Source of the DNA: a virus
Taxonomy: Duplodnaviria; Heunggongvirae; Uroviricota; Caudoviricetes
Virus record (IMG/VR): IMGVR_UViG_3300045988_043987
DNA: 44,072 nucleotides
Reading direction: 5' to 3' (one strand)
Below the pieces are notes generated by a model that saw only the letters and a list, made by a program, of their open reading frames with translations, did no database searches and had not been told where the DNA came from. Position 1 is the first letter of the stretch, and every line of letters starts with the position of its first letter. Below, in pieces: positions 5,424 through 40,447 of the stretch. A program made the translations under genes and the position numbers.

Positions 5424-5456
5424 CGAATAGTACCCTATTATATTGGTGTCTGCAAA
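5424..5456. promoter_or_regulatory. conserved dyad operator/promoter motif, copy 1
   Basis: CGAATAGTACCCTATTATATTGGTGTCTGCAAA; core AATAG-N4-CTATT with TATAAT on the minus strand. Confidence 0.6.
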
Positions 5457-5499
5457 TATTATTTTTATGCGTTACACTGGCGATACTACAGGAGGGCTT

Positions 5500-6543
5500 A
5501 TGAGCTTACTTACATCGCTAATCAGCCACCAGATATGGCTGCAACGCACCGCATCCGGCGAAGTGAAAGACCTTGCACCGTTTATTCAGGAGATGCGGGA
5601 TGAAATCAAACGGCAGGTGCTGTTATTCGGTGACGACGGGCGAAGCACAGCGCGCCTGAATAAACTGTTACGCGACCTCGAAGAAGCATTGACCGGACTT
5701 ACGGGTGACTGGCAGACAAAGCTGACAGAAGACCTTAAGGAACTGGCAGCGTATGAGGCTGAGTGGAACGTAAAGACACTTACCGCCAACGTAAATGCGG
5801 AATTTGTTACACCTACCGCCGAACAGGTGTGGGCCGCCGCCGAGTTTCAACCGCTCTCATTAAGCGACAAACCAGTTGATTTCACCAAGCTGATGTCGGG
5901 CTGGGGTGAAACAGAAGTCGCGCGCCTTGTAACCGGCGTTAAAATGGGTTTCGTACAAGGCCAAACCACACGGCAGATTGTTAAAAGCGTAGTCGGCGCT
6001 GGCGGACTGGCAGACATCTCGGAACGAAACGCAGCTACAGTAATACGTACTGCGCTGTCTCATGTGTCCAACGAAGCCCGTAACGAGACGTACCGCCAGA
6101 ACGACGACATCATTGAGAAATACGAAATAGTCGCCACACTCGACAGCCGTACATCAACAATATGCCGTAGCCTGGACAGGCAGGAATACGAAATCAGCAA
6201 AGGTCCGAGACCCCCTTTCCATCCTAACTGCAGAACGACCACTGCGCCCGTAATCAGTTCCGAGTTCGATTTCCTGGATAAAGGTGCAAAACGCGCGGCT
6301 AAGGGTGCGAACGGCGGTACTCAGGTAAGTGCGGACACCACTTACTACGAGTTCCTCAAACAACAACCGGCGTGGTTTCAGGACCAGGCCCTCGGCCCTG
6401 TTCGCGGTAAGATTTTCCGTAACAGCGGTATATCGCCGGAAGAGTTTCGCGTAATATCTGTAGATGGTTTTGGGAATCCGCTCACGCTTAAGCAGATGGC
6501 GGAACTCGATAAACGTGTCGCTGATTATCTGAAAGGGGAATAA
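5500..6543 (+). CDS. head morphogenesis protein (Mu F / SPP1 gp7-like minor head protein)
   Basis: characteristic C-terminal motif ...STICRSLD...PPFHPNCRTT; ATG at 5500 with AGGAGG. Confidence 0.85.
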   Translation: MSLLTSLISHQIWLQRTASGEVKDLAPFIQEMRDEIKRQVLLFGDDGRSTARLNKLLRDLEEALTGLTGDWQTKLTEDLKELAAYEAEWNVKTLTANVNAEFVTPTAEQVWAAAEFQPLSLSDKPVDFTKLMSGWGETEVARLVTGVKMGFVQGQTTRQIVKSVVGAGGLADISERNAATVIRTALSHVSNEARNETYRQNDDIIEKYEIVATLDSRTSTICRSLDRQEYEISKGPRPPFHPNCRTTTAPVISSEFDFLDKGAKRAAKGANGGTQVSADTTYYEFLKQQPAWFQDQALGPVRGKIFRNSGISPEEFRVISVDGFGNPLTLKQMAELDKRVADYLKGE

Positions 6544-7004
6544 TGATGGGCTTTTTCAAAGTAACTGATGTACCGTCGCGTCGCGTAGTCCAGTACGCCC
6601 GCGTGTCTGGCTCCGGCGAGAACGTAGTATTTATTGAGGATGAAAGTGTACTAGGTACACCAGTAGACGATATGCCGTTTGCGGATAAGACAGGCATCGC
6701 ACTTCCTGCGGCAGGTATGCTTTATGAGATTCCGTATCTGGCTGATGCGGGTGATGTGTATTTCTCCGAGCAACCGAAAGATGCGGAACTGGTAGACGGC
6801 AGCGCAACCCTCACTGTCGAAGTTAAAGCAGGTGAAGCGCCGTATACACTGACCTGGTACAAAGACGGTAAGGAAGTGGTAAACGCCCCGGAAGAGGCCT
6901 TGTCTCTGACGGTCAATGCAGTTGGTGAATACTTCGTTAAGGTTACTGATGCCGATGGTGTAGATGCGGTAAGTAAAGCGGCGAAGGTTACTAAGCCAGA
7001 ATGA
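6543..7004 (+). CDS. Ig-like domain protein (putative capsid decoration)
   Basis: Ig-like beta-sandwich signature TLTVEVKAGEAPYTLTWYKDGKEV. Confidence 0.6.
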   Translation: MMGFFKVTDVPSRRVVQYARVSGSGENVVFIEDESVLGTPVDDMPFADKTGIALPAAGMLYEIPYLADAGDVYFSEQPKDAELVDGSATLTVEVKAGEAPYTLTWYKDGKEVVNAPEEALSLTVNAVGEYFVKVTDADGVDAVSKAAKVTKPE

Positions 7005-7006
7005 TA

Positions 7007-7038
7007 AAAGGCCCCTTATGGGGCCTTAATTTTATTTA
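7007..7038. terminator. bidirectional intrinsic terminator
   Basis: AAAAGGCCCC-TTAT-GGGGCCTT followed by AATTTTATTT. Confidence 0.7.
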
Positions 7039-7553
7039 AATCGCGCTGGCATTAGCACCATAAATGCAGTGTTTGAAAATGATATTTTGCATCCTCTGAT
7101 TTGGTCCTGGAAATCGAAACGAGCGATTTCATTTTTGTATGCCTTAGAAATCTTGTGCGCGTCCGCCAAGTAGCGCAGGGTGAACCCTATGCTGTCAACC
7201 GCCCCCGGCGTGATGTGCGCCACACGTCTCCAGTCAGGAAACCTTCCGTCTACAACATCTACCGGAAGTGTACATATAAGCGCACGACTATCGTCATAGA
7301 AAGAAACGCTGCTGTTGTCGTGGTCTACTTCCGCGTAGTTAAATTTAGAAGGCTCTCTCCCTTTGATGTCTATGAGAACCGCATTCTCAACGTTTGTCTT
7401 AACGTTGTCGCAGAACAATCTATGACCGTCCGTAGACACTATCAATCCCTCCGGGTCTATGTAAAAAGCATTCAAATAATAGCGCACATCATTTTTAGCT
7501 CTGCATATTTTTGCCCCTACATACGCAGGGAAAGTAATTACTGTAGTAGCCAT
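7032..7553 (-). CDS. truncated beta sliding clamp (DnaN)-like protein
   Basis: segments DVRYYLNA, STDGHRLF, VDGRFPDWRRV, SIGFTLRYLADA and C-terminal MVLMPARFK match recalled enterobacterial DnaN domain II and C-terminus; GAGGAGG ribosome-binding site; own promoter motif. Confidence 0.7.
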   Translation of the reverse strand: MATTVITFPAYVGAKICRAKNDVRYYLNAFYIDPEGLIVSTDGHRLFCDNVKTNVENAVLIDIKGREPSKFNYAEVDHDNSSVSFYDDSRALICTLPVDVVDGRFPDWRRVAHITPGAVDSIGFTLRYLADAHKISKAYKNEIARFDFQDQIRGCKISFSNTAFMVLMPARFK

Positions 7554-7578
7554 TTTAACTCCTCCTCGTTTCGATAAC

Positions 7579-7611
7579 TGAATAGTACCCTATTATGTTG
7601 GGGTGTGCAAA
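7579..7611. promoter_or_regulatory. conserved dyad operator/promoter motif, copy 2
   Basis: TGAATAGTACCCTATTATGTTGGGGTGTGCAAA; minus-strand reading precedes the clamp-like gene's ribosome-binding site. Confidence 0.6.
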
Positions 7612-7661
7612 CTATTTATTAGCCTATTCCAGTTATTCCGCTCAATTGTAAATGTTGGAAT

Positions 7662-7704
7662 AAACTATTCGAATAGTTGACTTTTCACTAAAAATATGCT
7701 AAGC
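7662..7704 (+). promoter_or_regulatory. promoter of ncRNA A with upstream perfect palindrome
   Basis: palindrome AACTATTCGAATAGTT (7662-7677) overlapping -35 TTGACT (7676-7681); 17-bp spacer; -10 TAAGCT (7699-7704). Confidence 0.55.
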
Positions 7705-7710
7705 TCCACC

Positions 7711-7910
7711 TGAGCTTGTGAAGTATGAACAAGCGACCGCGGCGCGGGCAGGTAACGGAGCGGGACGTAAGTCCTGAGTGTAGTTACGCTGACGCGTTCG
7801 GAAGGGCCATACTCTATTGCTTGTGTAAAAAGTAACTGGTTTACTGAGATTACGCCGTTTCTATGTTTAAATGATAAGGACTAGCGCCCCGCTTTATGGC
7901 GGGGCTTTAC
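7711..7910 (+). ncRNA. candidate structured small RNA, paralog A
   Basis: own promoter; 5' hairpin GCUUGU-N9-ACAAGC; internal hairpin GGAC-GUAA-GUCC; conserved 3' segment UUCGGAAGGGCCAUA; terminator-like hairpin GCCCCGC-N6-GCGGGGC plus U-rich tail; paralog at 38625. Confidence 0.5.
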
Positions 7911-7929
7911 TTATCGAGAAAGGAGAAAC

Positions 7930-8316
7930 ATGAATCTTAAAGCAACTGTCGTAGCGGGAGCATGTTTCATCATCCTGGCTTACGCACACGGCATCCACCA
8001 GTATCGCAGCGGCTGGCACGAAGGCCGGGCGAATCTCGTTTCGCAGCAACAGCAGAAAGCACAAGCTGAGTTAGCGAAGAAAACACAACGGCAGCAGCAG
8101 GATGAATCAAAGGCCGCAGCCGCTGACAACGAAGGCAAGACGAAATCAGAGGTGATTACCCGTGAAGTCGTTAAGTACATTAAAACGCCTGGCCGCAGCG
8201 TGTGCACTTTTGACCCTGAGCGCGTGCAGCTCAAGTCCCGCGCCGTCGCAAACGCAAATTCCATCCCCGGATATGACGATGATGCAGCCTCCGTGCAAAC
8301 TGGCGCCGCCAAGTAG
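7930..8316 (+). CDS. i-spanin (Rz-like)
   Basis: N-terminal TM helix, Q/K-rich coiled-coil region, o-spanin gene overlapping in another frame. Confidence 0.75.
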   Translation: MNLKATVVAGACFIILAYAHGIHQYRSGWHEGRANLVSQQQQKAQAELAKKTQRQQQDESKAAAADNEGKTKSEVITREVVKYIKTPGRSVCTFDPERVQLKSRAVANANSIPGYDDDAASVQTGAAK

Positions 8317-8425
8317 CGACGCTGACGAGGATTTGGCTATCGACGTTCAGAACGCCGAATGTGTACGGCAACTGAGACTGAAAGTGTTCATGTTGCAGGA
8401 TTACGTGAGGAATATTCTGGAATAG
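8162..8425 (+). CDS. o-spanin (Rz1-like outer-membrane lipoprotein)
   Basis: signal peptide with lipobox LSAC, proline-rich mature part; GTG start with GAGGTGA; begins inside Rz and extends past its stop. Confidence 0.7.
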   Translation: MKSLSTLKRLAAACALLTLSACSSSPAPSQTQIPSPDMTMMQPPCKLAPPSSDADEDLAIDVQNAECVRQLRLKVFMLQDYVRNILE

Positions 8426-8507
8426 TTGCCTTGCATGTTGGAATAATTTATTCTTGACATGTAAATCCGGGTGGCCCGGGTTCCAACGTCCAGGGGACAT
8501 ACTGACT

Positions 8508-9209
8508 ATGAATCGTTTTTTACGTTATCCGTTCCAGGAAGAAGCTGGGGCAGAAGATAAAGCTGGTGGCGGTGACGCGCCGAAAATGTTCACCGCTGAA
8601 GAAGTTCAGGCGCTGATTGAGAAAGAAGTCGCCGGGCTTAAGGCCAATCAGGAAGCGTTGCTGGCGGAGAAGAAAGAAGCCGCTCGCAAAGCAAAAGAGG
8701 CCGAAGAAGAACGGCAGCGCGCACACCAGGAGGCGTTAAAAGCCGCTGGTAAGATGGACGAGTTCGAAAAAACGATTCGTAGCCAGTATGACCCGGTGCT
8801 AGCCGAGAAAGATGGCCGCATCTCCAGAATGGCAGAGCGCATCCTCGGCAGCGAACGTAAAGCGGTGTTAGGCTCTTTCGCAGGTGACTTCATCACCCCG
8901 GAAGCAGTGGACATCCTTGCACCGTTCGTTAAGACTGAGTTCGAAGGTGATGATGTGGTTACTAAGTTTGTCGGTGCAGATGGCAACGTAATCACGACTG
9001 ACCCGGAACAGTTCCGCAAATATCTGCGCGAACACAAAGCGTTTTCGCATTTGATTAAAGCAAATGCAGCTTCCGGCGGCGGGGCTTCCGGTGGCAAAGG
9101 CGGCGGGGCCGCACCAGCGTTTAAAGACATGAGTGAAGCGGAGCGTTTAGCTCTGTATAAATCGAACCCTGCCGAATTTGAACGGCAACTTAAAGCCCTG
9201 AGGAAATAA
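8508..9209 (+). CDS. scaffolding protein
   Basis: charged alpha-helical/coiled-coil sequence with Gly-rich C-terminal region, immediately upstream of major capsid gene. Confidence 0.6.
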   Translation: MNRFLRYPFQEEAGAEDKAGGGDAPKMFTAEEVQALIEKEVAGLKANQEALLAEKKEAARKAKEAEEERQRAHQEALKAAGKMDEFEKTIRSQYDPVLAEKDGRISRMAERILGSERKAVLGSFAGDFITPEAVDILAPFVKTEFEGDDVVTKFVGADGNVITTDPEQFRKYLREHKAFSHLIKANAASGGGASGGKGGGAAPAFKDMSEAERLALYKSNPAEFERQLKALRK

Positions 9210-9211
9210 TA

Positions 9212-10261
9212 ATGGCAATTACCACTATCGGCGATATCGTAACTAGCAACATCCCGGTCTTGGCGTCTTATATGACCGAGGACCCGGTAGAGAAAACCGC
9301 GTTCTTCCAGTCCGGTATTCTGACCCCGACTCCGTACGCCGCAGAGATTGCTCGTGGCCCTTCCAACGTCGCCAACATTCCTTTCTGGAAAGCGATTGAT
9401 GCCTCTATCGAGCCTAACTATTCGAACGACGTGTATCAGGACATCGCTACCCCGCGTAACGTGCAGACCGGTGAGATGATGGCCCGCGTTGCGTACCTGA
9501 ACGAAGGTTTCGGCCAGGCGGACCTGACTGTCGAACTGACCAGTCAGAATCCGCTGCAATCCGTGGCTTCTCGTCTGGATAACTTCTGGCAGCGCCAGGC
9601 ACAACGCCGTCTGATTGCTACCGCGCTGGGTCTGTACAACGACAACGTAGCCGCTACTGATGCTTACCACGAGAAGGATGACATGGTTATCGACGTGTCC
9701 GCTACTCTGGGCTTCGACGCGGGTGCATTCATCGACGCTACCCAGACTATGGGCGACGCTCTGATGGGCAACGGTGGTGAAGTGCTGGGCGCCATTGCTA
9801 TGCACAGCTTCGTTTATGCGCAGGCGCGTAAGCAGCAGCTTATTGACTTCATCAAAGACGCCGACAACGACACCCTGTTTGCCACCTACCAGGGCTACCG
9901 CGTGATTGTTGACGACAGCATGACCGTGGTCGGCACTGGTCCAAGCCGTAAGTTCATCTCCATCATCTTCGGCAACGGCGCTATCGGTTATGGCGAAGGC
10001 AACCCGTCCAACCCGCTGGAATATGAGCGCGAAGCGTCTCGCGGTAACGGCGGTGGCATTGAAACCCTGTGGACCCGTAAGACCTGGCTGTTGCACCCGC
10101 TGGGTTACAGCTTCACCAGCGCAGTAATCACTGGCAACGGCACCGAGACTACCCCGCGCTCTGCTTCATGGCAGGACCTGGCGAACGCCTCCAACTGGAA
10201 CCGTGTTGTTGACCGTAAGCACGTACCGATTGCCTTCCTGGTAACTGGTGTCGGTGCTTAA
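9212..10261 (+). CDS. major capsid protein
   Basis: 349-aa ORF after scaffold gene, GAGGA ribosome-binding site, followed by attenuating terminator. Confidence 0.7.
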   Translation: MAITTIGDIVTSNIPVLASYMTEDPVEKTAFFQSGILTPTPYAAEIARGPSNVANIPFWKAIDASIEPNYSNDVYQDIATPRNVQTGEMMARVAYLNEGFGQADLTVELTSQNPLQSVASRLDNFWQRQAQRRLIATALGLYNDNVAATDAYHEKDDMVIDVSATLGFDAGAFIDATQTMGDALMGNGGEVLGAIAMHSFVYAQARKQQLIDFIKDADNDTLFATYQGYRVIVDDSMTVVGTGPSRKFISIIFGNGAIGYGEGNPSNPLEYEREASRGNGGGIETLWTRKTWLLHPLGYSFTSAVITGNGTETTPRSASWQDLANASNWNRVVDRKHVPIAFLVTGVGA

Positions 10262-10277
10262 GGTTAAGCTATAATCG

Positions 10278-10304: not shown

Positions 10305-10320
10305 TACTAAGAGGTAAATT

Positions 10321-14672: not shown

Positions 14673-14697
14673 AAGGCCCCTTTCGGGGCCTTTTTCT
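14673..14697. terminator. bidirectional intrinsic terminator
   Basis: AAGGCCCC-TTTC-GGGGCCTT plus TTTTT. Confidence 0.7.
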
Positions 14698-15251
14698 TAC
14701 AAACCTAATTTTAAAGCAATGTCTATAACGTTCGATTTAACGTCACCTGGTATGATGTAGGTGTCGTAATCTTTTACACCGCTAACATCATACAGATAAC
14801 CACGGCTGTCCCCCTCAAACGTATAGCCGTCGCGATGGAGGCGAACGATTCGCACGTCATGACCCGCGGCGACGATAGGGGCTACTTCGCTGGCGAACCC
14901 GCCGTCGGACACTACAAAAACTTCGTCGCCGTCTGGCAAGTTTTCAGCAAGATACTTACCGAAATAATCACTACCAAGTACCGGTTTAATGAATTGCTCA
15001 GATATAGCAATCATGAACTGACGCCGCGACAAGCCATTAAGGAAGCCTTCTGACTTTTCTTTCCGTGCCCGGTCGTCGTAGCCGTCGATAAACTCGTGGT
15101 AAGCATCCGGGCCTAATGCCGCCAGAGCGATATTGAACATTGGATTCTTGAAACTGGTGATTCCCTTCGCAAAGCCCATTTCTACCAGCGCCATAGCAAG
15201 TGTGTCTTTCCCGCAACCCGCCGGGCCATTAAGAATAATTACCTTAGCCAT
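14697..15251 (-). CDS. deoxynucleoside monophosphate kinase (T4 gp1-like)
   Basis: P-loop NGPAGCGKDT near N-terminus. Confidence 0.7.
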   Translation of the reverse strand: MAKVIILNGPAGCGKDTLAMALVEMGFAKGITSFKNPMFNIALAALGPDAYHEFIDGYDDRARKEKSEGFLNGLSRRQFMIAISEQFIKPVLGSDYFGKYLAENLPDGDEVFVVSDGGFASEVAPIVAAGHDVRIVRLHRDGYTFEGDSRGYLYDVSGVKDYDTYIIPGDVKSNVIDIALKLGL

Positions 15252-15739
15252 TATTTATCGCTCCCGTGTGGTTTTAAGTGTGTAGAGTTCCCGTTACAGT
15301 CGTATTCAGTAACCGCGTGAGTGGTTATACCGAGTCCGCGGAAATGCTTTATTACCGCGGGAGAGTCGTCGAATGCGCACAAGATTCTTTCCAGCCCGAT
15401 AGCACGTAACACCTCTTCTTTAATTACGATGTCTTTTCTGTTGTCGTGTTTGCTGCGCATTATCAGCGTGTCAAACTTAACGTTATTTTCTCGCAACCAT
15501 TTACGAGTCCCATCCTCAGCGTCGTCGCTTCGACCGGTAAGGATGATTACGGTCATCCCGGTATGCCACAGCGTGTTGCACAAGTGAATGTTGTCATATA
15601 TCGGCGCATCATCTTTGCACGCCATGTTAAATGGCCTCCAAGCCCATGTTTCGCCGTAGTTATCTTTCGGCAGCAGGTGCAAACGATGTGTACCATCTGC
15701 TAATGTCCCGTCTAAATCGAAAATTACAATATCTTTCAT
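15251..15739 (-). CDS. HAD-superfamily phosphatase/nucleotidase
   Basis: HAD motif I FDLDGTL at N-terminus. Confidence 0.7.
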   Translation of the reverse strand: MKDIVIFDLDGTLADGTHRLHLLPKDNYGETWAWRPFNMACKDDAPIYDNIHLCNTLWHTGMTVIILTGRSDDAEDGTRKWLRENNVKFDTLIMRSKHDNRKDIVIKEEVLRAIGLERILCAFDDSPAVIKHFRGLGITTHAVTEYDCNGNSTHLKPHGSDK

Positions 15740-16866
15740 CCCAGCATCTCCGGTGAAATAGTTAAACGCGCAACCTCGCCATATTCGGCGCTATATGTAA
15801 TTACGTTTGCACTGCGGCCTGACATCCATCCGCCGCGAGAGGCGTAGGCGTCTTTAGCCGCCAGGGTGCGGTGTTGCTCGACAATCATGTTACGACTTTC
15901 TACAATCTTCTGGTGGTGCAGGTGGCCCACGTGAGCGTAGCTGTAAACACTCTCGCCGAACGCTTTACGGAACTTGGCAATCATAACAGGTTCGATAGCG
16001 TCGAATCGCGCCTTATGGCCGTGATGAAAGAACAGAGTCGTTTTGCCGTGTCGCACCATCTTGTAAACATCCGGCGACGTATCGACGAACACACGCGGCT
16101 CGTTGTCGTACAGCGTGCTAAACATCTCAGCCAACCAAATCATTCCGCTTTCGTCGTGGTTCCCTTGCACGATAAGCAAGCGAACATTTTTATGCTTAAC
16201 AAGGGCCATATCAACAACACGGCGGACCATACGAATCATGTAGCGGACAAGTTTCTGATAACGGGTGTCAGCATCAAGAACATTACCACTCGCCGGTGTA
16301 ACGGCAACCAGACTATCGAAGTGCGCAAGGTCCCCAAGCAGGTTAATAACCCCTGTTCCCGCATCCGGTGCTTTCTGAAACGCGGCATCGAACCAGCGGG
16401 AGAACAGGTCTTCTGCAATCTTCATATCCCAGTCGTCGCCGCTTTCATCGGCCCAGGCCAGCATACCGAGATGGAAATCAGATACCGTGTAAAGATTGAG
16501 TAGTTTATCGTCGCGTTTAGCCCGAACGGCTTTAACAGGAGCAACGGGGGTAATCTCCGACTTCATCCCTTCGATTACGGCTTTCATCAACTCTACCTGA
16601 CGTTCGGCATCGGTGTCGGTCTTAACCCATTGCAGCTTAGTGTTGCCGAACTCGTCCACCAGTGACGACGTGCCTTTAATCTTGTAGCCGTCTGGTACAA
16701 GATGACTGACGTCGCGGCCGTGCCCTACGCCTTTCTTAGCCAGCTTCGCTTTACGGATACGAATAACGCGATCTGAGATGCCATATTTACGGGCTATATC
16801 GATATTCCTCAATCCGGCGTTCAATTCTTCCTGTAACTGTTCGTCGGTTATTTTCTTCCGGGCCAT
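15736..16866 (-). CDS. metallophosphoesterase (SbcD/Mre11-like motifs) with N-terminal helix-turn-helix
   Basis: motifs SDFHLG, GDLAHFD, GNHDE, GHLHH; N-terminal helix-turn-helix ARKYGISDRVIRIRKAKL. Confidence 0.65.
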   Translation of the reverse strand: MARKKITDEQLQEELNAGLRNIDIARKYGISDRVIRIRKAKLAKKGVGHGRDVSHLVPDGYKIKGTSSLVDEFGNTKLQWVKTDTDAERQVELMKAVIEGMKSEITPVAPVKAVRAKRDDKLLNLYTVSDFHLGMLAWADESGDDWDMKIAEDLFSRWFDAAFQKAPDAGTGVINLLGDLAHFDSLVAVTPASGNVLDADTRYQKLVRYMIRMVRRVVDMALVKHKNVRLLIVQGNHDESGMIWLAEMFSTLYDNEPRVFVDTSPDVYKMVRHGKTTLFFHHGHKARFDAIEPVMIAKFRKAFGESVYSYAHVGHLHHQKIVESRNMIVEQHRTLAAKDAYASRGGWMSGRSANVITYSAEYGEVARLTISPEMLG

Positions 16867-16904
16867 GCTTACGTCCTCGTGTTTAGGATTTGTCCTATAC
16901 TAGC

Positions 16905-17096
16905 TCACTTCTCGTTAACATTCGAGTTGCACGCCCAGATTAAAATAAACACCCACGGCAGCAGAACCCATCCGAGAAACAGGTTAGCCATGAATATCGC
17001 TAACTTCGCTTTATGGTTACGGAAGTATGCAACCAGGAAAGGTGCGAAATAGGCGAGCAGTGCAAACAGAATTAAGGAAACTGGTAAACTTGACAT
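16905..17096 (-). CDS. small membrane protein (about 63 aa, 2 TM helices)
   Basis: hydrophobic helices; AAGGGG before ATG at 17096; first gene of antisense operon. Confidence 0.5.
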   Translation of the reverse strand: MSSLPVSLILFALLAYFAPFLVAYFRNHKAKLAIFMANLFLGWVLLPWVFILIWACNSNVNEK

Positions 17097-17122: not shown

Positions 17123-17156
17123 GTGAATAGTACCCTATTATATTGGGGCGCGCAAG
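17123..17156. promoter_or_regulatory. conserved dyad operator/promoter motif, copy 3
   Basis: GTGAATAGTACCCTATTATATTGGGGCGCGCAAG. Confidence 0.6.
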
Positions 17157-26242: not shown

Positions 26243-26268
26243 AAGGCCCCGAAAGGGGCCTTTTCTCT
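26243..26268. terminator. bidirectional intrinsic terminator
   Basis: AAGGCCCC-GAAA-GGGGCCTT plus TTTT. Confidence 0.7.
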
Positions 26269-28337: not shown

Positions 28338-29254
28338 TTACAGCCCCCATGAACGCCTTTATAAATTCAGCGGCTACTTGCGGGACGATGGCATTGCCGT
28401 AACCGCGCAATCGTCCCACTCTGGCGGGTATCCCATTAGCCAGCGGGAATGTGCCGGGTTCAACTGGCCGGAACTTTCCATCCCTGCATCCGAGCCAGTC
28501 AGCATCCGACCAGAAGCTGCGATTCGGATTGCCCCCACGAGGTAGCATTGATTGTGCAGATTGTTCGGGTCTCTTTTTGTTTCCGCCTCGCTGTAGCTGC
28601 CGTGACGCGAATTCTGAACCGTCGGCGTCCCCCATGCCGCTTTCAGTCCCTGCTCTGTTGAGTAGTCCAGCCTGTCGAATGTTCTGTCCTTCCCGTCCTT
28701 GCGAATCACTGTCTCTCCGCTCCCTTTGTGATCGTTCGCTGTCGGTGTCGGCCAGTTGGTACGCACCAAAGAAGAGTCGTTCTCTTTTATGCGGAGCGCC
28801 GACGCTACAAGCTGGGAGTACGGCAAACCCGACGGCGTAGTCTTCTCCTTCCAGGTGAGTTTGTAAATCGCACATCCACGATTTTGCAATTGCTGGCGCA
28901 ACCTGTTCCCCAAAGAGGACTGGAGGGTGGCACTCGCTGATGAGGTCGAGGAAGACTGGCGCGAGGTGTCTCGGGTCGAACTGTCCGAGTTGTTTTCCTG
29001 CCGCGCTAAACGGTTGGCAAGGCGGGCTTCCCGTCCAGAGAGGCGTATCTTCCGAAACTCCCGCAAGTCTGAGCGCGAGAGGCCAGCCGCCGATGCCAGC
29101 GAAAAAAATGACACTGGGTGAACCCGTCAAGGTCTTCTGGCTTAACTTCGGTAATGCTTCTTTCATCTACAACTCCAAAAGGTATGTGACCCTGTTTTAT
29201 TAATTCACGCAGCCACGCGGCTGCACCTTTATCCCATTCATTGTAATAGTTCAT
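28330..29254 (-). CDS. DNA cytosine-5 methyltransferase, reading frame interrupted at a homopolymer
   Basis: motifs NEWDK, FFAGIGGW, PCQPFSAAGK, GEQV, GNAIVPQVA; N-terminal 82-aa ORF (29254-29006) and catalytic ORF (29166-28330) differ by one base at the A7 run 29102-29108. Confidence 0.75.
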
Positions 29255-29442
29255 TTGGCCACCAGAACTAACTCTTTACGCCCGAACGCCGTAACGTTAC
29301 CTGTTACGTCTTCGATAACCAGTTTGCCGTTCGACTCTACGAACACTGTATCAACGGCAACAGGACGACGGGTCTTAACGTTGAAAATCATGTCGCCCGG
29401 TACGATGTCACGTGCTGGTTTGCGGTCATATTCGTGTTTCAT
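29251..29442 (-). CDS. hypothetical protein (63 aa)
   Basis: AAGGA ribosome-binding site; stop overlaps methyltransferase start (ATGA). Confidence 0.55.
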   Translation of the reverse strand: MKHEYDRKPARDIVPGDMIFNVKTRRPVAVDTVFVESNGKLVIEDVTGNVTAFGRKELVLVAK

Positions 29443-29461: not shown

Positions 29462-29492
29462 TTGGTGTAGGACTAACTATAGTAGTTCGCTA
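29462..29492 (-). promoter_or_regulatory. sigma70-like promoter (TTGACG-17-TATAGT) with dyad operator in spacer
   Basis: minus-strand TTGACG, 17-bp spacer containing AATAGCGAACTACTAT, -10 TATAGT. Confidence 0.5.
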
Positions 29493-29757
29493 TTAGGTCG
29501 TCAACCTGTTTGAACGAACCAACGACAAAAACATTTGCACCACGTTTGCGCATCCGCTCGTGCTCTCGTAACTGGTGCGGGTCAGGCTTCGTGCTTTCGT
29601 CTTTCTTAACCTCGACGAACCAGATGATGCCGCCGGGGAGAATTACCAGCAGGTCAGGAGCGCCGGAGCGCCCCTCGTAGGAAAGTTTACGAACGAGGCC
29701 ACCAATGGCCTCGAATCGCTCTTTTGCGTATTTCTGTATTTTTCCTTCCGGGGTCAC
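29473..29757 (-). CDS. VRR-NUC domain nuclease
   Basis: PD-(D/E)XK-like pattern GAPDLLVILPGGIIWFVEVKK ... HQLREHERMRKRGANVFVV. Confidence 0.65.
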   Translation of the reverse strand: MTPEGKIQKYAKERFEAIGGLVRKLSYEGRSGAPDLLVILPGGIIWFVEVKKDESTKPDPHQLREHERMRKRGANVFVVGSFKQVDDLIANYYS

Positions 29758-32352: not shown

Positions 32353-32377
32353 AAAAAGGCCCAATGAAGGGCCTTAG
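32353..32377 (-). terminator. intrinsic terminator/attenuator between SSB and polymerase genes
   Basis: minus-strand hairpin GGCCC-N6-GGGCC followed by TTTTTA. Confidence 0.55.
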
Positions 32378-32394
32378 TTAAATTGATTCAGATA

Positions 32395-33074: not shown

Positions 33075-33106
33075 TGGTTAGAAATATAATAGCTAACTAT
33101 TCAGGT
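33075..33106 (-). promoter_or_regulatory. sigma70-like promoter (TTGACA-17-TATATT) with dyad operator in spacer
   Basis: minus-strand GTGTTGACA, 17-bp spacer containing TGAATAGTTAGCTATT, -10 TATATT; upstream of SSB gene. Confidence 0.6.
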
Positions 33107-33115
33107 GTCAACACT

Positions 33116-34675: not shown

Positions 34676-35146
34676 TTATTCTTCTTCGAAATACTTGTTC
34701 TTGATTGCTGTCAAGCGTTCCAGGTATTCAGCCAGGTCTTCGTCTTTAATCGCAGCAATCTTCATCTTCTTGCCGGTGAACTCTTCCAGCAGTTCATCTG
34801 AATCATCGCACGCGGCATCGCTAGGACCTTCGTTAATAGCATCGTCGATAGCCTGAATCTGGTCACGCAGAGACTGGTAATCTACCTCTTCCTTCTCTTC
34901 TTCCGGCTCTGGCGTTGGTTCCTCTACTTTAGCTTTACGCGGCTTGCGTTTCGGCTTCTCTTCTTCTGCCGGTTTAGTGTCGACGATGTCTTCACCTTCG
35001 ACCGGGATTTCTTTTGTTGCTTCTTTTACAACATTAGGCTCAATTGTTGCGGTTTCAGCAACGACAACTTGTTTCGCACTGTTCGCAGCAATCAGTTCAT
35101 GTGCAACTACGAAACGTTCCAGTAATACTAAGAATTTCTCTAACAT
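34676..35146 (-). CDS. hypothetical acidic protein (156 aa)
   Basis: Glu/Asp-rich ORF; GAGAGGAGAGA before start. Confidence 0.55.
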   Translation of the reverse strand: MLEKFLVLLERFVVAHELIAANSAKQVVVAETATIEPNVVKEATKEIPVEGEDIVDTKPAEEEKPKRKPRKAKVEEPTPEPEEEKEEVDYQSLRDQIQAIDDAINEGPSDAACDDSDELLEEFTGKKMKIAAIKDEDLAEYLERLTAIKNKYFEEE

Positions 35147-35167
35147 TTGTTTCTCTCCTCTCGTTTG

Positions 35168-35200
35168 GTATGCACTAACTATAATAGCTAACTATTCATT
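35168..35200 (+). promoter_or_regulatory. dyad operator/promoter motif, copy upstream of helix-turn-helix gene (site 1)
   Basis: ATGCAC-TAAC-TATAAT-AGCTAACTATTCA. Confidence 0.55.
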
Positions 35201-35221
35201 ATGTCAATGGGCTTTTCTAAA

Positions 35222-35250
35222 ATAATTAATATGGTACTATTCACATATCA
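35222..35250 (+). promoter_or_regulatory. dyad operator/promoter motif, site 2, about 20 nt before ribosome-binding site of helix-turn-helix gene
   Basis: TAATATGGTACTATTCACAT, one mismatch from canonical copies. Confidence 0.55.
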
Positions 35251-35271: not shown

Positions 35272-35487
35272 ATGCAACCATCTGAACTAGGCATCCGTGT
35301 AGAACAACGCCGTAAAGAACTCGGTATCTCCCAGCGCCGTCTGGCGGTCCTGGCCGGTGTTTCCCAGGGCGCGATTAACCAGCTGGCACTTGGAGTAACT
35401 CAGGACGTCCGCCCGGCGACGCTGTTCAAGCTGGCGGAAGTGCTGGAAGTAGACGCCAAGTGGCTGGCGTTCGGTGAAGGGGCTTAA
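35272..35487 (+). CDS. XRE-family (Cro/CI-like) helix-turn-helix transcriptional regulator
   Basis: helix-turn-helix signature ISQRRLAVLAGVSQGAINQL; AAGGAG ribosome-binding site; lone plus-strand gene in minus-strand module. Confidence 0.75.
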   Translation: MQPSELGIRVEQRRKELGISQRRLAVLAGVSQGAINQLALGVTQDVRPATLFKLAEVLEVDAKWLAFGEGA

Positions 35488-35503
35488 CGCCCCTTTCTTT
35501 TCA
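35477..35503 (+). terminator. intrinsic terminator
   Basis: GGGGC-TTAAC-GCCCC followed by TTTCTTTTC. Confidence 0.6.
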
Positions 35504-35638: not shown

Positions 35639-37896
35639 TCCAAATCCTCATCTGTCACCACCAGCATTTCATTCGGTTCGTATATTGTCTTCGGAATTTT
35701 GTTGTCGTTTATACCCCACGGCAGCCGGTACTGCTTAGGTATAGGTCTGTTGTTGCCATCCAGACCTGAGACGATAACCCCAGCCTCGTGCATCTCTTCC
35801 AGTTTCTTTCTAAGGTCGTTATTGGCGTTAATTGGTACGCCATAACTATCTTCTTTCGCGGCTTTGACGATAGCCGACATAGAGAACCCTCGCTTATCGT
35901 CGCCCTGCTCCTGCAATTTACCCAATGCGTAAATAACCGTAGCCTCTTTGGTGTCCAGTTTCTCGAACTGGCCTACCTTTTCTTTAACGGCTTCCTTCTG
36001 TTCGTCGGTCATACCTTCTACTTTCTTCACGAAGACAGAGAAGGCGTTAAAGTTAACAAAGACATCGATGTGCGGGTTTCCTGCGTCAAAATCGCGGACA
36101 TCATCACTACTGTACCCTTCCGGAAGACCCATGAAGTTGTGAGTTGGCTCTTTCTTTTTCGGTGGCTCCGCTATCTGAATCTTCTGTATTACAAATCCTC
36201 TGGCTTTCTGCCGTTCTCCGTTTCGGTTCTTTATGTGATACAGGTTTATCCCTAAGTTATTGTCGTTGTCAGGCTTATGCAGGAACATCCCGTTATCGAT
36301 GGAGTTGTGAAAGTCACTTCCACCCTTCGGCATCATGCCGTTTTCCGACGGTACTGTTTCGTCGATGTTTTTAGTCGGGTGCACCATAGCACCTACCGCG
36401 GCGTTAAGCGTCGACGCTATTTCGTTAAGTGCCTGCGCCGCTTCTTTCATTGACCTGTTGTCGTTTTCGTCAAAGCCAGGTATGCAAGTTTGCAGGGTAT
36501 CAAACGTAACCTTTACAATTTTCTCTTCACCGGCAACACGGCGCATCATTCTCACCACCTGACGTCGCCATGCTTCGTCGAGTAAGTTACATCCCTCCGC
36601 AACACAATCGATAATGTGCAAGCGGTCCAAGTTATCGCCGAGGGCAATCTGCAAAGATTTTTTATGTCGCTCGAACGACCGCACACCTTCACCCGCAAAA
36701 ATAAACGCATGACCTTCCGCTACCTCAGCCCCGCCGAACGCATATCTTTTTTCGGCAGCAATAGCGGCGTCAATCGCCATACTAAATGTTGACTTACCGG
36801 TATGCGACTTTGCACAAATGTAGAATGATTCGTTAGTCTGCATAAGACCATCTACGACGGAGTATGCAGGTTCTTTTTCTAATTCCGGCTCGTCTTCAAG
36901 GTCTTCCAGCGTGCAAGTTACAGGTTCCTCGTTCTCTGTGCGGTGCAGTTCTTCAATCTCTTCATCAGGTAAATCAGGCAGAGCCGCGCGAATGCTGTTA
37001 ACGCTGATAGGTTGCTTGTCTACGTTAAGCTCGTCAGGTAGACCACACATACGCAGGGCCAAATGCTGCCTACGGTTAAGCTCGGTGCAAGCGCCGTTGT
37101 TTGTATGCTGGCAGACAAAGCGCACTTCTTTACCGTCTAGCATGATGCTGGTGGAGCCTTTGCCTGTGTGCAGATGTTCGTTAGGGCATGGCACTTCGTA
37201 CCCGCGCCCGGAAGATAAAGCATCAAGCCCAAGCTCGGCTTCGCAGAAATGCGCTATATCTGCGTTAAGCCCATGCTCATCGGCAGCAAGTGTCTTGGCT
37301 TCGCGTTTACGCAACCCCATCTCTTCGGCTTTCTTGATGTACCGCTCGGCACGGATAACACGCCCCTCTGTAACCGTTATCTTCGACTCTTTATGCGGCA
37401 GGTAGATAAGGCGGTTGCCATCTTCTGTGCAGTGGTCACGCAGCGATTCATCTATTTCTAACTCTGCACAAATAGCCCGTTGCACCATCCACGCATCGTT
37501 AGAGTTAAACGGAGTGCGAGCCGGAACCAGAACGCGGAATGCGTAATCCCCGTTTTTACACGCGTGCTGATGCGATGCCGTTGTGTGCAGAATATTGAAG
37601 AACGGCGCGTTCTTGAATTTGCGTGTCAGGTCGCGGTACTGAGTACGGTTGAGATGGTCGAAGTCGAACTTAACCACACTGTCTTCCAGAATCGCATTCT
37701 TACGGCGACCGCCAACAGGAGCAATAGCCTTCTGCTTAATCTTAGCCGCGTCGTATTCTTCCTTAGTCCACGACGGGTCCACGGACAAACGCTTCGATGT
37801 ATCGCAGACGTACTCTACAAACTGCTCCAGCGGCATTTCACGTGCTACAGGGTTTTTATCGAATGTGTTACGCAGCGTTGCAAAAACAATATTCAT
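35635..37896 (-). CDS. DNA primase / P-loop ATPase (primase-helicase-like replication protein)
   Basis: Cys/His zinc-binding cluster, Walker A SHTGKST, 753 aa. Confidence 0.75.
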   Translation of the reverse strand: MNIVFATLRNTFDKNPVAREMPLEQFVEYVCDTSKRLSVDPSWTKEEYDAAKIKQKAIAPVGGRRKNAILEDSVVKFDFDHLNRTQYRDLTRKFKNAPFFNILHTTASHQHACKNGDYAFRVLVPARTPFNSNDAWMVQRAICAELEIDESLRDHCTEDGNRLIYLPHKESKITVTEGRVIRAERYIKKAEEMGLRKREAKTLAADEHGLNADIAHFCEAELGLDALSSGRGYEVPCPNEHLHTGKGSTSIMLDGKEVRFVCQHTNNGACTELNRRQHLALRMCGLPDELNVDKQPISVNSIRAALPDLPDEEIEELHRTENEEPVTCTLEDLEDEPELEKEPAYSVVDGLMQTNESFYICAKSHTGKSTFSMAIDAAIAAEKRYAFGGAEVAEGHAFIFAGEGVRSFERHKKSLQIALGDNLDRLHIIDCVAEGCNLLDEAWRRQVVRMMRRVAGEEKIVKVTFDTLQTCIPGFDENDNRSMKEAAQALNEIASTLNAAVGAMVHPTKNIDETVPSENGMMPKGGSDFHNSIDNGMFLHKPDNDNNLGINLYHIKNRNGERQKARGFVIQKIQIAEPPKKKEPTHNFMGLPEGYSSDDVRDFDAGNPHIDVFVNFNAFSVFVKKVEGMTDEQKEAVKEKVGQFEKLDTKEATVIYALGKLQEQGDDKRGFSMSAIVKAAKEDSYGVPINANNDLRKKLEEMHEAGVIVSGLDGNNRPIPKQYRLPWGINDNKIPKTIYEPNEMLVVTDEDLE

Positions 37897-38021
37897 TTCT
37901 TTTTCTCCGCACGTTCTAAGGCTTCCTGCATACGACGCATTGCGCGGTTCATCTTTACCGGTGCGAAGAAATCAGCGCCGTGTTTCTGGCGGCGTAGCTG
38001 TGGAACTATTAACTTCGTCAT
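37893..38021 (-). CDS. hypothetical basic micro-protein (42 aa)
   Basis: AAGGA ribosome-binding site; stop overlaps primase ATG (ATGA); below track cutoff. Confidence 0.3.
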   Translation of the reverse strand: MTKLIVPQLRRQKHGADFFAPVKMNRAMRRMQEALERAEKKK

Positions 38022-38089
38022 TGTATAATCCTTGTGCTTACTTTGATGATTTGTACTTTAACCCCGACGTTCTGGCGTTGGGGTTTCTT

Positions 38090-38302
38090 TTATTTATCGC
38101 CTGCAAACCACGCGTGCGCAGAATCATAGAAACGACATTTACTTAACATGTCTACCGGCATCTTAATAATGCGCGTCGGTTCCGACAAATGATTAGGTTT
38201 ACATATTTCTGCATAGAATCCGCTGTCGGTAATTTCTGACGCAAACTTAAACCAGTATTTAACTTTACCGTTCTCAAAGTAACAACCCATACGCCCAATC
38301 AT
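38090..38302 (-). CDS. hypothetical protein (70 aa)
   Basis: ORF coupled to upstream helix-turn-helix gene. Confidence 0.5.
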   Translation of the reverse strand: MIGRMGCYFENGKVKYWFKFASEITDSGFYAEICKPNHLSEPTRIIKMPVDMLSKCRFYDSAHAWFAGDK

Positions 38303-38481
38303 TTCACGTTCTCCTTAATCCACGCTTCAACTTTATTACGGTCAAATGTTCCAGGTAAACGGCGGCCCATAACCTTAATACAACAGTCGGGGAATTTACC
38401 ACTGCGTAACCAGTTATTAATTGTCTGACGTGTCACCCCAATACGTTCTGCTACTTCATTCTGGGTCATGTAATGTTGCAT
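38299..38481 (-). CDS. helix-turn-helix DNA-binding protein (AlpA/excisionase-like fold)
   Basis: MTQNEVAERIGVTRQTINNWLRSGKFP; AGGAG before ATG at 38481 (track ORF extends to 38553). Confidence 0.65.
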   Translation of the reverse strand: MQHYMTQNEVAERIGVTRQTINNWLRSGKFPDCCIKVMGRRLPGTFDRNKVEAWIKENVK

Positions 38482-38589
38482 TTTTATATCTCCTGTTTGT
38501 TTAGTGAAGCCAAGTATAGGATAGCGTGAATGTAAAAGCAACCAAAACACCACACAAAGTTACTAAGATACAAAAGATGCTACTGGTAT

Positions 38590-38618
38590 TGACTTTTACT
38601 AAGAAATATGCTAAGCTC
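38590..38618 (+). promoter_or_regulatory. promoter of ncRNA B (TTGACT - 17 bp - TAAGCT)
   Basis: same hexamers and spacing as ncRNA A promoter. Confidence 0.55.
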
Positions 38619-38624
38619 GTCCTG

Positions 38625-38836
38625 AGCTTGTGAAGTATGAACAAGCGACCGCGGTGCGCGGCAGGCGAAACGAGCACGTCTCGACGTGTGGAGTGAGTCT
38701 CGCTGGCGCATTCGGAAGGGCCATAGTCTATTGTTATTCCCGCCTAAGTATCTAAGTTACTGATTTGACGTAGGTTAGAACCGCAAGCTCACTCACTCAC
38801 TCTTGGTGCCTTCGGCACCCCGTTCGTTTCGTTTCG
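38625..38836 (+). ncRNA. candidate structured small RNA, paralog B
   Basis: shares 5' 37 nt and 3' UUCGGAAGGGCCAUA segment with paralog A; internal hairpin CACGU-CUCG-ACGUG; terminator-like GGUGCC-UUCG-GCACC plus U-rich tail. Confidence 0.5.
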
Positions 38837-38885
38837 CTCGCTACCCTATTACACGAAAGAATCACAACGGCAACGTAACTATTCT

Positions 38886-38919
38886 CTTGCACACCCCAAT
38901 ATAATAGGATACTATTCAC
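38886..38919 (+). promoter_or_regulatory. conserved dyad operator/promoter motif, copy 4 (TTGCAC-N7-TATAAT-AGGATACTATTCAC)
   Basis: perfect TATAAT at 38900-38905; about 30 nt upstream of ribosome-binding site of 38950 gene. Confidence 0.6.
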
Positions 38920-38949
38920 TTATCGAAACGAGACAGAGGAGTGAGGGTT

Positions 38950-39141
38950 ATGTTTAAAAAGGGTCAGTTGGTTAAATGCGCCGACGGTAAACACGGTGTG
39001 ATTGAATTAAAATCCGCTTTATTTCCGGGAGAGTACGTAGTTACTGTGCAAAAGGTGAGAGGAGTAAATTCGGTGGTATACGTAGCGGAAGAGAATTTAA
39101 AGCTAATCGGCAACAATTTTAAATTCAAAGGGGCGAAGTGA
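38950..39141 (+). CDS. hypothetical protein (63 aa)
   Basis: GAGGAG ribosome-binding site; first gene of rightward early cluster. Confidence 0.6.
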   Translation: MFKKGQLVKCADGKHGVIELKSALFPGEYVVTVQKVRGVNSVVYVAEENLKLIGNNFKFKGAK

Positions 39142-39347
39142 TGGACGAATTATTCGAAGAACTGAAACATCATAAACTGGAGAAAGTGCATTTCCAGGTA
39201 AACAGATACGAGGTTATTTTATTCGACGGCCCAACTATTTCTTCCGGGGTATGGAAGGACCTGCTAAAAGTTTTACGTGCGCTACGAACGGCATCGAATC
39301 ATGATGCCAGTGCCGACGACTCTGAGGGAGTTGCCGTTAATGAATAA
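39138..39347 (+). CDS. hypothetical protein (69 aa)
   Basis: ATGA-coupled ORF. Confidence 0.55.
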   Translation: MMDELFEELKHHKLEKVHFQVNRYEVILFDGPTISSGVWKDLLKVLRALRTASNHDASADDSEGVAVNE

Positions 39348-39606
39348 CGCTGAACTGGAAAAAGTCTCCGACACTCTTCATAAGGTACGGGTCATGCGTC
39401 GGGGTGCTGGGCTGGAGCAGTTTTATAACATGTGGCGCACCGCGACGCGCGACCATGAGTTTCTGCGAACAGGTTATTATTTCACTAAAGGCATTATCCC
39501 GATTCGCGCACGCGGGGATTACGGATGGGTTCGCGAGACACCTAATCTTATGTGGTGCTGGTACTGCGGTGAGTTCTGGGTGCACGTTAAAGAGAAGATG
39601 GGGTGA
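39340..39606 (+). CDS. hypothetical protein (88 aa)
   Basis: ATG at 39340 overlapping upstream stop. Confidence 0.5.
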   Translation: MNNAELEKVSDTLHKVRVMRRGAGLEQFYNMWRTATRDHEFLRTGYYFTKGIIPIRARGDYGWVRETPNLMWCWYCGEFWVHVKEKMG

Positions 39607-39609
39607 GTT

Positions 39610-39864
39610 ATGAGAGAAGCATTCGAACGGTGGGCCGTCGTCGATGGTCTGCCGGTTAACAAGGGTTCGAAGAAAGAGTACCTGAACGTTAAGACGCGTC
39701 TCGCGTGGCGGGCGTGGAAAGCTGGTGTGCAGTACAAATCTCGTGCTGACGAAGTGCTGCTCTCGCGTTCATACAAGAATCAGACACATGAAGCGTTAAA
39801 ATGCGATTCTCCGAAGTCTGATGAATCGATCTTAGATATGCTATCTACTTACTCAGAAAGGTAA
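39610..39864 (+). CDS. hypothetical protein (84 aa)
   Basis: ORF with GGGTGAG upstream. Confidence 0.5.
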   Translation: MREAFERWAVVDGLPVNKGSKKEYLNVKTRLAWRAWKAGVQYKSRADEVLLSRSYKNQTHEALKCDSPKSDESILDMLSTYSER

Positions 39865-39907
39865 GTGGAAAGCTGGTGTGTTGTTTATCGCGAATCAGAG
39901 GTGAGAT

Positions 39908-40111
39908 ATGGGTAAGTGGATTAAGTGTAGTGAGCGGATGCCAGACCATGGCCAGCCAGTTTTGGTTGTCAGTAGTATGGGTGGTGTGGTCCAGAACAAT
40001 GTGTACGAGTGGGATGGGGTAACTTGGTGTGATTTCCGGGCGGACTACGGGGAACACGTGCAGGAAGTGTTTTCTCACTGGATGCCATTACCTGAGCCAC
40101 CAGAAGTGTGA
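39908..40111 (+). CDS. DUF551-like protein
   Basis: W-x-KCSERMP ... HWMPLPEPP pattern typical of DUF551. Confidence 0.55.
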   Translation: MGKWIKCSERMPDHGQPVLVVSSMGGVVQNNVYEWDGVTWCDFRADYGEHVQEVFSHWMPLPEPPEV

Positions 40112-40143
40112 TGTTCAATAGTTTGGGATTTTACTGAGTGACT

Positions 40144-40176
40144 TACGCTGCTACACAGCAGCGTATCATTTTTCTC
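40144..40176 (+). terminator. intrinsic terminator
   Basis: TACGCTGC-N6-GCAGCGTA followed by T-rich tract. Confidence 0.6.
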
Positions 40177-40235
40177 ATTTTTGTTCTATTTCACCAAACG
40201 CAACAATCGAAGCGACTATTGAAGGAGATGCAACA

Positions 40236-40406
40236 ATGAAACTTAATGACATCGTAACCTGGACCGGTAGAAACGGAGAAAAGCGATTCGGGCTTATTGT
40301 TGCATCAAACGGCAACAAGTACCGTGTTATGCGATGGCGTCAGTGGGCGCGACGCCCGAGGCACTACTGGATTAGTAGCGAACGATTATCTTTAAAACAC
40401 CAATAA
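40236..40406 (+). CDS. hypothetical basic small protein (56 aa)
   Basis: strong AAGGAG ribosome-binding site; below track cutoff. Confidence 0.4.
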   Translation: MKLNDIVTWTGRNGEKRFGLIVASNGNKYRVMRWRQWARRPRHYWISSERLSLKHQ

Positions 40407-40412
40407 AATTTA

Positions 40413-40447
40413 CTTGCACGCTAAGATAGAATAGGCTACTATTCACT
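40413..40447 (+). promoter_or_regulatory. conserved dyad operator/promoter motif, copy 5 (TTGCAC-N7-TAGAAT-AGGCTACTATTCAC)
   Basis: same architecture and leader (CACAAACGAGAGGAG) as copy 4. Confidence 0.55.

Follow-up and report, generated by a model that had tools for sequence, protein, structure and literature searches.

What reads a short inverted repeat that recurs at the promoters of a lytic phage, and to what effect? The question was raised by a stretch of 44,072 bp (IMG/VR record IMGVR_UViG_3300045988_043987; the whole of this stretch is called the window), in which the dyad AATAG-N4-CTATT is scattered over the genome. The window proved to be the complete genome of a Kagunavirus-type siphophage (Guernseyvirinae), collinear gene for gene with that of Escherichia phage Golestan; nucleotide identity to Golestan in the searched right-hand 18 kb was about 89%, with 79% aligned. 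The dyad was found to behave like the operator of one dimeric regulator (a single phage regulator had been proposed in a preliminary description of the same DNA), with half-sites conserved in two genera, a centre that drifts and three registers relative to the promoter, and it is taken here as a predicted operator. An even chance is given to the explanation preferred below, that the dyad would be the operator of a phage-encoded dimeric helix-turn-helix (HTH) repressor, the likeliest candidate binder being a 71-residue 434-Cro-like protein encoded at 35272-35487.

The exact dyad was found seven times (5426, 7581, 17126, 33088, 35183, 38903 and 40430) against 0.06 expected from shuffles, and 12 matches with at most one mismatch were found against 1.03 expected. 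The 12 matches correspond to 11 distinct sites, because positions 1-119 are an exact duplicate of 43954-44072 and the matches at 27 and 43980-43993 are therefore one site; the duplication marks where the assembly of a circular or circularly permuted genome overlaps itself, and the unique length is 43,953 bp. The scan with at most one mismatch recovered 29481 (AGTAGTTCGCTATT) and 35228 (AATATGGTACTATT), both among the nine elements of the preliminary description, and added two sites absent from it, 27 (= 43980) and 7672. With exactly two mismatches, 12 sites were found, a single one of them intergenic, which is the chance level, and the family is thus sharply bounded. Intergenic DNA makes up 6.6% of the genome and was found to hold 10 of the 11 distinct sites (binomial P = 1.6e-11), the remaining site, 29481, overlapping the last codons of the upstream gene. 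In a blind count of all 5-mer inverted repeats the dyad ranked first in the window as well as in Golestan, followed by a terminator hairpin family. All nine elements listed earlier were thus present at their positions, the motif family proved to be real, and the intergenic enrichment, for which a quantitative scan had been named as the check, was borne out.

At every site the dyad was found to overlap a sigma70-type core promoter, in one of three registers (Table 1). The class-II sites (33088, 35183 and 29481) contained the dyad in the promoter spacer, centred near -18.5, and their promoters were the best consensus matches of the genome. The class-I sites (5426, 7581, 17126, 38903 and 40430, with a weaker form at 35228 in the own promoter of the cro-like gene) contained the dyad over the -10, with the right half-site as part of the probable -10 of TTGCAC-17-TACTAT and the centre near -12.5. 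At 27 and 7672 the dyad lay over the -35, its centre and right half forming the hexamer TTGACT, and was centred near -33.5. Hexamer matches of 10-11 of 12 at a spacing of 17-18 bp were found at 33111, 35207, 29504 and 32/43985, that is, at the class-II sites and one of the sites overlapping the -35, and the four best sigma70 matches in intergenic DNA all contained the dyad (4/4); the promoter at 7677, ahead of a non-coding RNA candidate, scored 8/12. The occurrence of the dyad in three registers fits steric occlusion by a repressor, and not a contact made by polymerase or an activator dependent on helical phase. Two other analogies were set aside by direct reading of the sequence, sigma54 promoters (TGGCAC-N5-TTGCA) and T4 MotA or late promoters, for which the spacing and the upstream elements were absent; divergent promoters on the opposite strand were readable at only two of the five class-I copies and so are not a property of the family.

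Table 1. Dyad sites of the window with their promoters, and the genes of two candidate regulators
Feature	Coordinates	Strand	Promoter and register	Genes or remark
Dyad ACTAGTTGACTATT, one mismatch	27..40	+	overlaps the -35 of TTGACT-17-TATATT (32-60)	upstream of the operon of small, terminase and structural genes
Class-I dyad, AATAGGGTACTATT in gene orientation	5426..5439	-	in a TTGCAG/TTTGCA promoter (5427-5455), with TACTAT, the right half, as -10	61-residue gene product, 5213-5398
Class-I dyad	7581..7594	-	in TTGCAC-17-TACTAT (7582-7610)	drives the gene for a 173-residue protein, 7032-7553
Dyad AATAGTTGACTTTT, one mismatch	7672..7685	+	over the -35 of TTGACT-17-TAAGCT (7677-7705)	ahead of a structured non-coding RNA candidate
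Class-I dyad	17126..17139	-	in TTGCGC-17-TACTAT (17127-17155)	superinfection-immunity gene 16905-17096 and exonuclease/kinase operon to 14697
Class-II dyad AATAGCGAACTACT, one mismatch	29481..29494	-	spacer of TTGACG-17-TATAGT (29476-29504)	29251-29442 and methylase/helicase operon
Class-II dyad	33088..33101	-	spacer of TTGACA-17-TATATT (33083-33111)	DUF2815 gene and DNA polymerase operon
Class-II dyad	35183..35196	-	spacer of TTGACA-18-TATAGT (35178-35207)	34676-35146 and exonuclease operon; divergent from the cro-like gene
Dyad AATATGGTACTATT, one mismatch	35228..35241	+	over the -10 (TACTAT) of the cro-like gene's promoter	presumed autoregulatory operator
Class-I dyad	38903..38916	+	in TTGCAC-17-TACTAT (38887-38915)	rightward small-gene operon from 38950
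Class-I dyad	40430..40443	+	in TTGCAC-17-TACTAT (40414-40442)	40474 onward
XRE/434-Cro-like HTH protein, 71 residues	35272..35487	+		monocistronic, terminator 35476-35496; best candidate for a dyad-binding repressor
HTH_17 (excisionase/MerR-like) protein, 60 residues	38299..38487	-		alternative candidate regulator

Several particulars of the preliminary description were altered by this analysis. The tie to promoters stood, and the promoters TTGACG-17-TATAGT (29504) and TTGACA-17-TATATT (33111) were confirmed, with TTGACA-18-TATAGT at 35207 in addition. The class-I string TTGC(A/G)C-N7-TATAAT-AGGNTACTATTCACTTA, given for five copies, was found to be exact at 38886 and 17123 and to deviate by one or two bases at 40413 (TAGAAT), 7579 (CATAAT and CAGTTA) and 5424 (TTGCAG and CGGTTA). 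The assignment of TATAAT as the class-I -10 did not hold, since the spacer after TTGCAC would be only 7 bp, too short for sigma70, and TACTAT fits at 17 bp; no conserved -35 was found 17 bp upstream of TATAAT, and its T residues were found to vary in relatives where TACTAT is invariant. The class-I promoter is thus best read from the sequence as TTGCAC-17-TACTAT, in which TACTAT and TTG were invariant in relatives, the Jerseyvirus copies containing TTGACG/TTGGCA-18-TACTAT. The placement of the dyad over -10/+1 or the spacer was right for the spacer of class II; in class I the spacer and the -10 are covered, not -10/+1. Under either assignment of the class-I -10, the dyad would overlap the polymerase footprint, and repression is predicted. 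The distance from the end of the class-I dyad to the start codon was 27-33 nt. A leader, (C/A)AAACGAG(A)GGAG, was observed directly before the start codons behind class-I and class-II promoters (35147-35170, 38917-38940, 40444-40465 and 7555-7580) and was conserved across relatives; it may serve as an enhancer of translation or as an extended ribosome-binding element.

Conservation was followed in 80 loci around homologues of the 71-residue HTH protein and in four annotated genomes. Every Kagunavirus-like and Jerseyvirus-like locus was found to contain the exact dyad, with 1-4 copies per 10 kb; it was absent from nearly all other loci of the set, except for one copy each in two loci of the related lineage L036-38. 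Six orthologous promoters, each represented by 16-33 distinct sequences from Kagunavirus and Jerseyvirus loci, were used for a footprint, in which the half-sites had an entropy of 0.00-0.06 bit, as low as that of the -35 and -10 hexamers. At five of these promoters the 4-bp centre had an entropy of 0.43-1.05 bit and came in as many as seven variants per site; at the sixth, 35228, in front of the cro-like gene, it was nearly invariant (0.08 bit). Variation among relatives was also seen in the spacer bases next to the dyad. The half-sites are under strong purifying selection in the two phage genera, as read from these alignments, while the centre and the flanks drift. The left half-site of class II falls at about -25 to -21, where the sigma70 holoenzyme makes no base-specific contacts, and the selection on it therefore points to another protein.

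At site 27 the mismatch was fixed per genus, with ACTAG in Kagunavirus (ACTAGTTGACTATT) and CTAGT on the other half in Jerseyvirus (AATAGTTGACTAGT), and at 35228 the mismatch (AATAT) was found in all 16 Kagunavirus variants. Such conserved mismatches suggest operators kept deliberately weaker. The mismatch at 29481 (CTACT) was observed to be private to the window, the 21 other distinct orthologous sequences all containing CTATT. Lineage L034 was found to contain AATAC-N4-GTATT at orthologous promoters (4 sites against 0.28 expected), and lineages L036-38 contained AATA(C/G/T)...TATT dyads, again at orthologous promoters. The Cornellvirus VSiP, a Salmonella phage, was found to contain 14-bp dyads AATA/ATTA-N6-TAAT (9 sites against 2.6 expected), among them the orthologue of site 27; its dyads at promoters orthologous to sites of the window stand at 7675, 14870, 27444, 31230, 34369, 37447, 38063 and 40952. 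Such shifted half-sites point to a divergence of operator specificity inside the subfamily.

The best candidate for the binding protein was found beside two of the dyads. The 71-residue protein matched PF01381 HTH_3 (E = 2.3e-12; 47 bits, cutoff 23), and its best solved relative in the PDB was 434 Cro (E = 5.4e-7, residues 6-68 of 71). The 125-bp divergent promoter region of its gene contained two dyads 45 bp apart, one in the spacer of the leftward promoter and the other over the gene's own -10, so that both the own and the divergent promoter are overlapped, as in an autoregulated gene; the divergent gene encodes an acidic protein of 156 residues without a Pfam match. The dyad itself has the form of a 434-type operator, being an inverted repeat of about 14 bp with conserved outer bases and a variable centre. 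Lambdoid homologues of the protein (39-41% identity) were found between the cI and cII genes, beside three 14-bp operators of the form ACAG-N6-CTGT. The protein was found in every Guernseyvirinae lineage sampled, and each of these contained dyads of the same geometry with lineage-specific half-sites. In an RNA sequencing time course of Kagunavirus K1B4, an HTH-domain gene was among only four earliest genes; the time course was coarse, and which HTH gene was meant is uncertain (PMC12645636).

The gene content of the window bears on how such a repressor would act. No RNA polymerase gene was found in the window by homology mapping to a RefSeq relative and a Pfam scan of all large open reading frames, which were all assigned (terminase, portal, tape measure, tail proteins, family-A DNA polymerase, helicase-primase, SNF2 helicase and nucleases); as the phage encodes no such polymerase, initiation at each of the 11 promoters must depend on the sigma70 RNA polymerase of the host. 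By the same mapping and scan no cI, integrase or excision module was found in the window, and a lambdoid immunity region with cI and cro was not present. The structural genes are transcribed rightward, the replication genes leftward from about 38.5 to 26.3 kb, and the small early genes rightward from 38.9 kb. On entry, host RNA polymerase would fire all promoters. The Cro-like dimer would then accumulate, fill the operators and occlude the polymerase, whereby transcription of the early and replication operons, and of the antisense moron units, would be turned down. Through the operator in its own promoter the Cro-like protein would limit its own synthesis, and the imperfect operators (27, 35228, 7672 and 29481) would perhaps be repressed later or less strongly. 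The binding of the Cro-like protein to the dyad, repression as its effect and the grading of affinities are all inferred.

A number of observations weigh against this proposal. The class-I promoter TTGCAC-17-TACTAT matches sigma70 at only about 7 of 12 positions, and an automatic scan offers alternative pairings; at 35228, in the promoter of the cro-like gene, the -35 is very weak. The class-I copies were found to have about 45 bp in common, the leader included, and part of their similarity could be due to common descent of promoter cassettes. The recognition helix of the Cro-like protein was less conserved than the motif, which favours another binder: it reads SQGAINQ in Kagunavirus and SQSLITH in Jerseyvirus, both with AATAG half-sites, and Jerseyvirus and Cornellvirus contain the same Q-S-...-H at the 434-equivalent contact positions with different half-sites. 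A simple covariation of recognition-helix residues with half-site bases was examined and was uninformative; as the differences in helix and half-site do not track each other, no simple residue-to-base code supports the Cro assignment. The late promoter would be repressed too, which leaves sustained late expression unexplained. The literature found on Guernseyvirinae consists of genome reports and the one coarse time course, and no study of binding, footprints, transcription starts or the regulator was found in it.

Another phage protein might bind the dyad as its operator, either the 60-residue HTH_17 protein or an unrecognised small early protein, and this was judged quite unlikely. The HTH_17 protein was 82-100% identical between Kagunavirus and Jerseyvirus, the two genera with the exact AATAG-N4-CTATT, and was undetectable in the complete Cornellvirus genome, which is without the exact motif. 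Its phylogenetic profile looked at first better than that of Cro and was weakened by the variant dyads in lineages without the gene: AATA-N6-TATT dyads were enriched in L034 and L036-38, where no HTH_17 gene was found in the 13-20 kb covered. Only a TATAG half-site, and no full dyad, was found upstream of the HTH_17 gene, the protein has no close solved homologue, and winged helices of the excisionase type usually bind direct repeats as monomers, not 14-bp dyads. A lack of any dedicated regulator was rated as unlikely. The dyad would then be an intrinsic promoter feature (extra -10-like elements or a spacer signal for host RNA polymerase), or the sites would be paralogous promoter-leader cassettes spread with morons. 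AATAG and CTATT do look like pieces of -10 hexamers (TATAAT, TACTAT, TATTAT), weak promoter-like hexamers were readable on the opposite strand of two copies, and the extended 45-bp block with its leader is common to the class-I copies. An intrinsic feature accords poorly with the invariance of the class-II left half-site among varying spacer bases, with the three registers, and with the symmetry kept where the half-sites are altered, as in AATAC...GTATT. Descent of cassettes does not explain the class-II and -35-overlapping sites, because they share nothing but the dyad with class I.

Recognition of the dyad by a host DNA-binding protein was considered very unlikely. The motif was found to be conserved between Escherichia and Salmonella phages, its geometry resembles that of the E. 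coli TrpR operator ACTAG-N4-CTAGT, and site 27 contains one TrpR-like half each in Kagunavirus and Jerseyvirus. Nearly all half-sites were AATAG and not ACTAG; Jerseyvirus and Cornellvirus both infect Salmonella and differ in their half-sites; and the variant half-sites follow the phage clades, not the hosts, a pattern that disfavours the resemblance. Promoters for a phage-encoded RNA polymerase were given next to no chance. Seven orthologous sites of the close relative fBC-Eco01, with the same motif at orthologous positions and the consensus tgAATAGTa-ccTATTat-T, were listed by PHIRE in Table S2 as 'Phage RNAP promoter' PP1-PP7 (PMC9825357). PHIRE reports repeated motifs and says nothing on the specificity of a polymerase, and the proposal was ruled out on gene content, every large open reading frame of the window being assigned otherwise.

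The preferred reading, repression through the dyad by the Cro-like protein, has a wider form that was thought doubtful. In it, the one 434-Cro-like protein would be the master regulator of an obligately lytic phage at every sigma70 promoter (11/11), those of the early genes, the replication genes, the antisense morons, the small-RNA locus, the late genes and its own gene; perfect early operators and conserved imperfect late or autoregulated ones would generate the whole temporal programme, and the half-sites would co-evolve with the protein across the Guernseyvirinae genera. The preliminary description had assigned one operator to early, replication and moron genes, and the motif was indeed found at these; the extent had been understated, as it was also found in the promoter of the packaging/structural genes (27) and at a locus resembling a small RNA (7672). 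Should the switch consist of the Cro-like protein and the operator, control of the early, replication and moron genes would come down to one small protein and a site of 14 bp, and a compact, portable repressor/operator tool would be at hand for engineering phages of 41-44 kb; Kagunavirus and Jerseyvirus phages are frequent candidates for therapy and biocontrol and are now in the BASEL collection. The mechanism, a Cro-type repressor occluding sigma70 promoters, is a familiar one, and the gain would lie in the understanding of this phage group, not in a new principle.

The leftward genes at 5213-5398, 7032-7553 and 14697-17096 were found to be moron-like, as described earlier, each unit with its own promoter and terminator, antisense inside the late operon. 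To each class-I promoter of these units belongs a hairpin terminator (5190, 7008-7027 and 14673-14692), and at the 7032-7553 locus, compared with Golestan gp05/06, the cargo differed between close relatives and the promoter was kept. The 173-residue cargo of this locus (minus strand) showed a sub-threshold Pfam match to the central domain of the DNA polymerase III beta (sliding clamp) subunit (E = 0.005); behind the orthologous promoter Golestan contains two unrelated small genes. A G+C-rich hairpin, AAGGCCCC-N4-GGGGCCTT, was observed in five nearly identical copies (5190-5212, 7008-7027, 14673-14692, 26244-26266 and 32357-32380), which have T-runs on both strands and lie where transcription units converge; the copies probably terminate transcription in both directions, and the hairpin is found again in Golestan, SE2 and VSiP.

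A non-coding element was observed in two copies on the plus strand (7677-7910 and 38589-38830), 82% identical over about 145 nt and near two class-I copies of the dyad. It was found to contain an invariant promoter-like start, TTGACT-17-TAAGCT, followed by a structured core of about 120 nt (7706-7821 and 38618-38735) and hairpin terminators (7886-7905 and 38805-38819). The element was conserved in Kagunavirus loci at 77-98% identity, and its structure is supported by compensatory base-pair changes, RNAalifold giving a long-range helix with such changes in 6 of 26 pairs. A covariance-model match was found at the orthologous position of Jerseyvirus SE2 (L002 23101-23202; E = 2.8e-9). No Rfam family gave a meaningful match to the repeat, and none matched anywhere in the window at gathering thresholds; the element is a candidate phage small RNA. 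Directly upstream of, and overlapping, the 7672 dyad and the promoter of the first copy, a perfect palindrome, CTATTCGAATAG, was observed at 7665-7676, containing both operator half-sites in everted order. Few promoter-like sites lack a full dyad, among them that of the second copy (38590) and that of the HTH_17 operon (38488-38560, minus strand), which appears to be TTGCTT-17-TATACT with a single TATAG half-site.

Repeats of this family have been listed before: besides the fBC-Eco01 sites, seven PHIRE promoters were reported in Golestan (PMC7203180), and from the Salmonella phage SGP-C TAATAGTACCCTATTATGTT was described as a "phage-specific regulatory element" (PMC8790156); the motif is the same in these genomes and stands at orthologous positions. 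The PHIRE papers go no further than a list of the repeats and their assignment to a phage RNA polymerase, which the gene content contradicts; they contain nothing on the dyad as an operator, on its three registers, on the class-II sites of the replication operons or on a connection with the Cro-like gene. A recurring annotation error, "phage RNAP promoters" in genomes without a phage RNA polymerase, is thereby corrected.

As far as the sequence goes, this lytic phage has probably put a repressor/operator system of the classical Cro type to use over its whole genome. The operators bound by 434 Cro, ACAA-N6-TTGT, are dyads of 14 bp in which the outer bases are conserved and the centre is free. 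Like 434 Cro, the protein of the window has 71 residues and a single XRE-type HTH domain, aligned over residues 6-68, and like the 434 operators its predicted operator is an inverted repeat of 14 bp, conserved at the outer bases and free in the sequence of its centre, which overlaps promoter cores and occurs twice in the divergent region of the regulator. Unlike 434, the phage of the window is strictly lytic and is without a cI partner, an integrase and the OR1-OR3 triplet, with two sites in place of three in tandem; its predicted operators are dispersed over 11 promoters of the genome instead of lying in two clusters, and the half-site is AATAG and not ACAA. The Cro of CobraSix-type lambdoid prophages is a homologous protein (39-41% identical) with the same 14-bp dyad geometry adjoining its gene, whereas those phages are temperate and contain a classical immunity region with ACAG-N6-CTGT three times between cI and cro and no evident genome-wide regulon. 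The moron units resemble lambdoid morons in being promoter-gene-terminator units within the late (structural) operon, and differ from them in carrying the phage's own dyad, by which they seem to be wired into the lytic programme and not expressed from a prophage.

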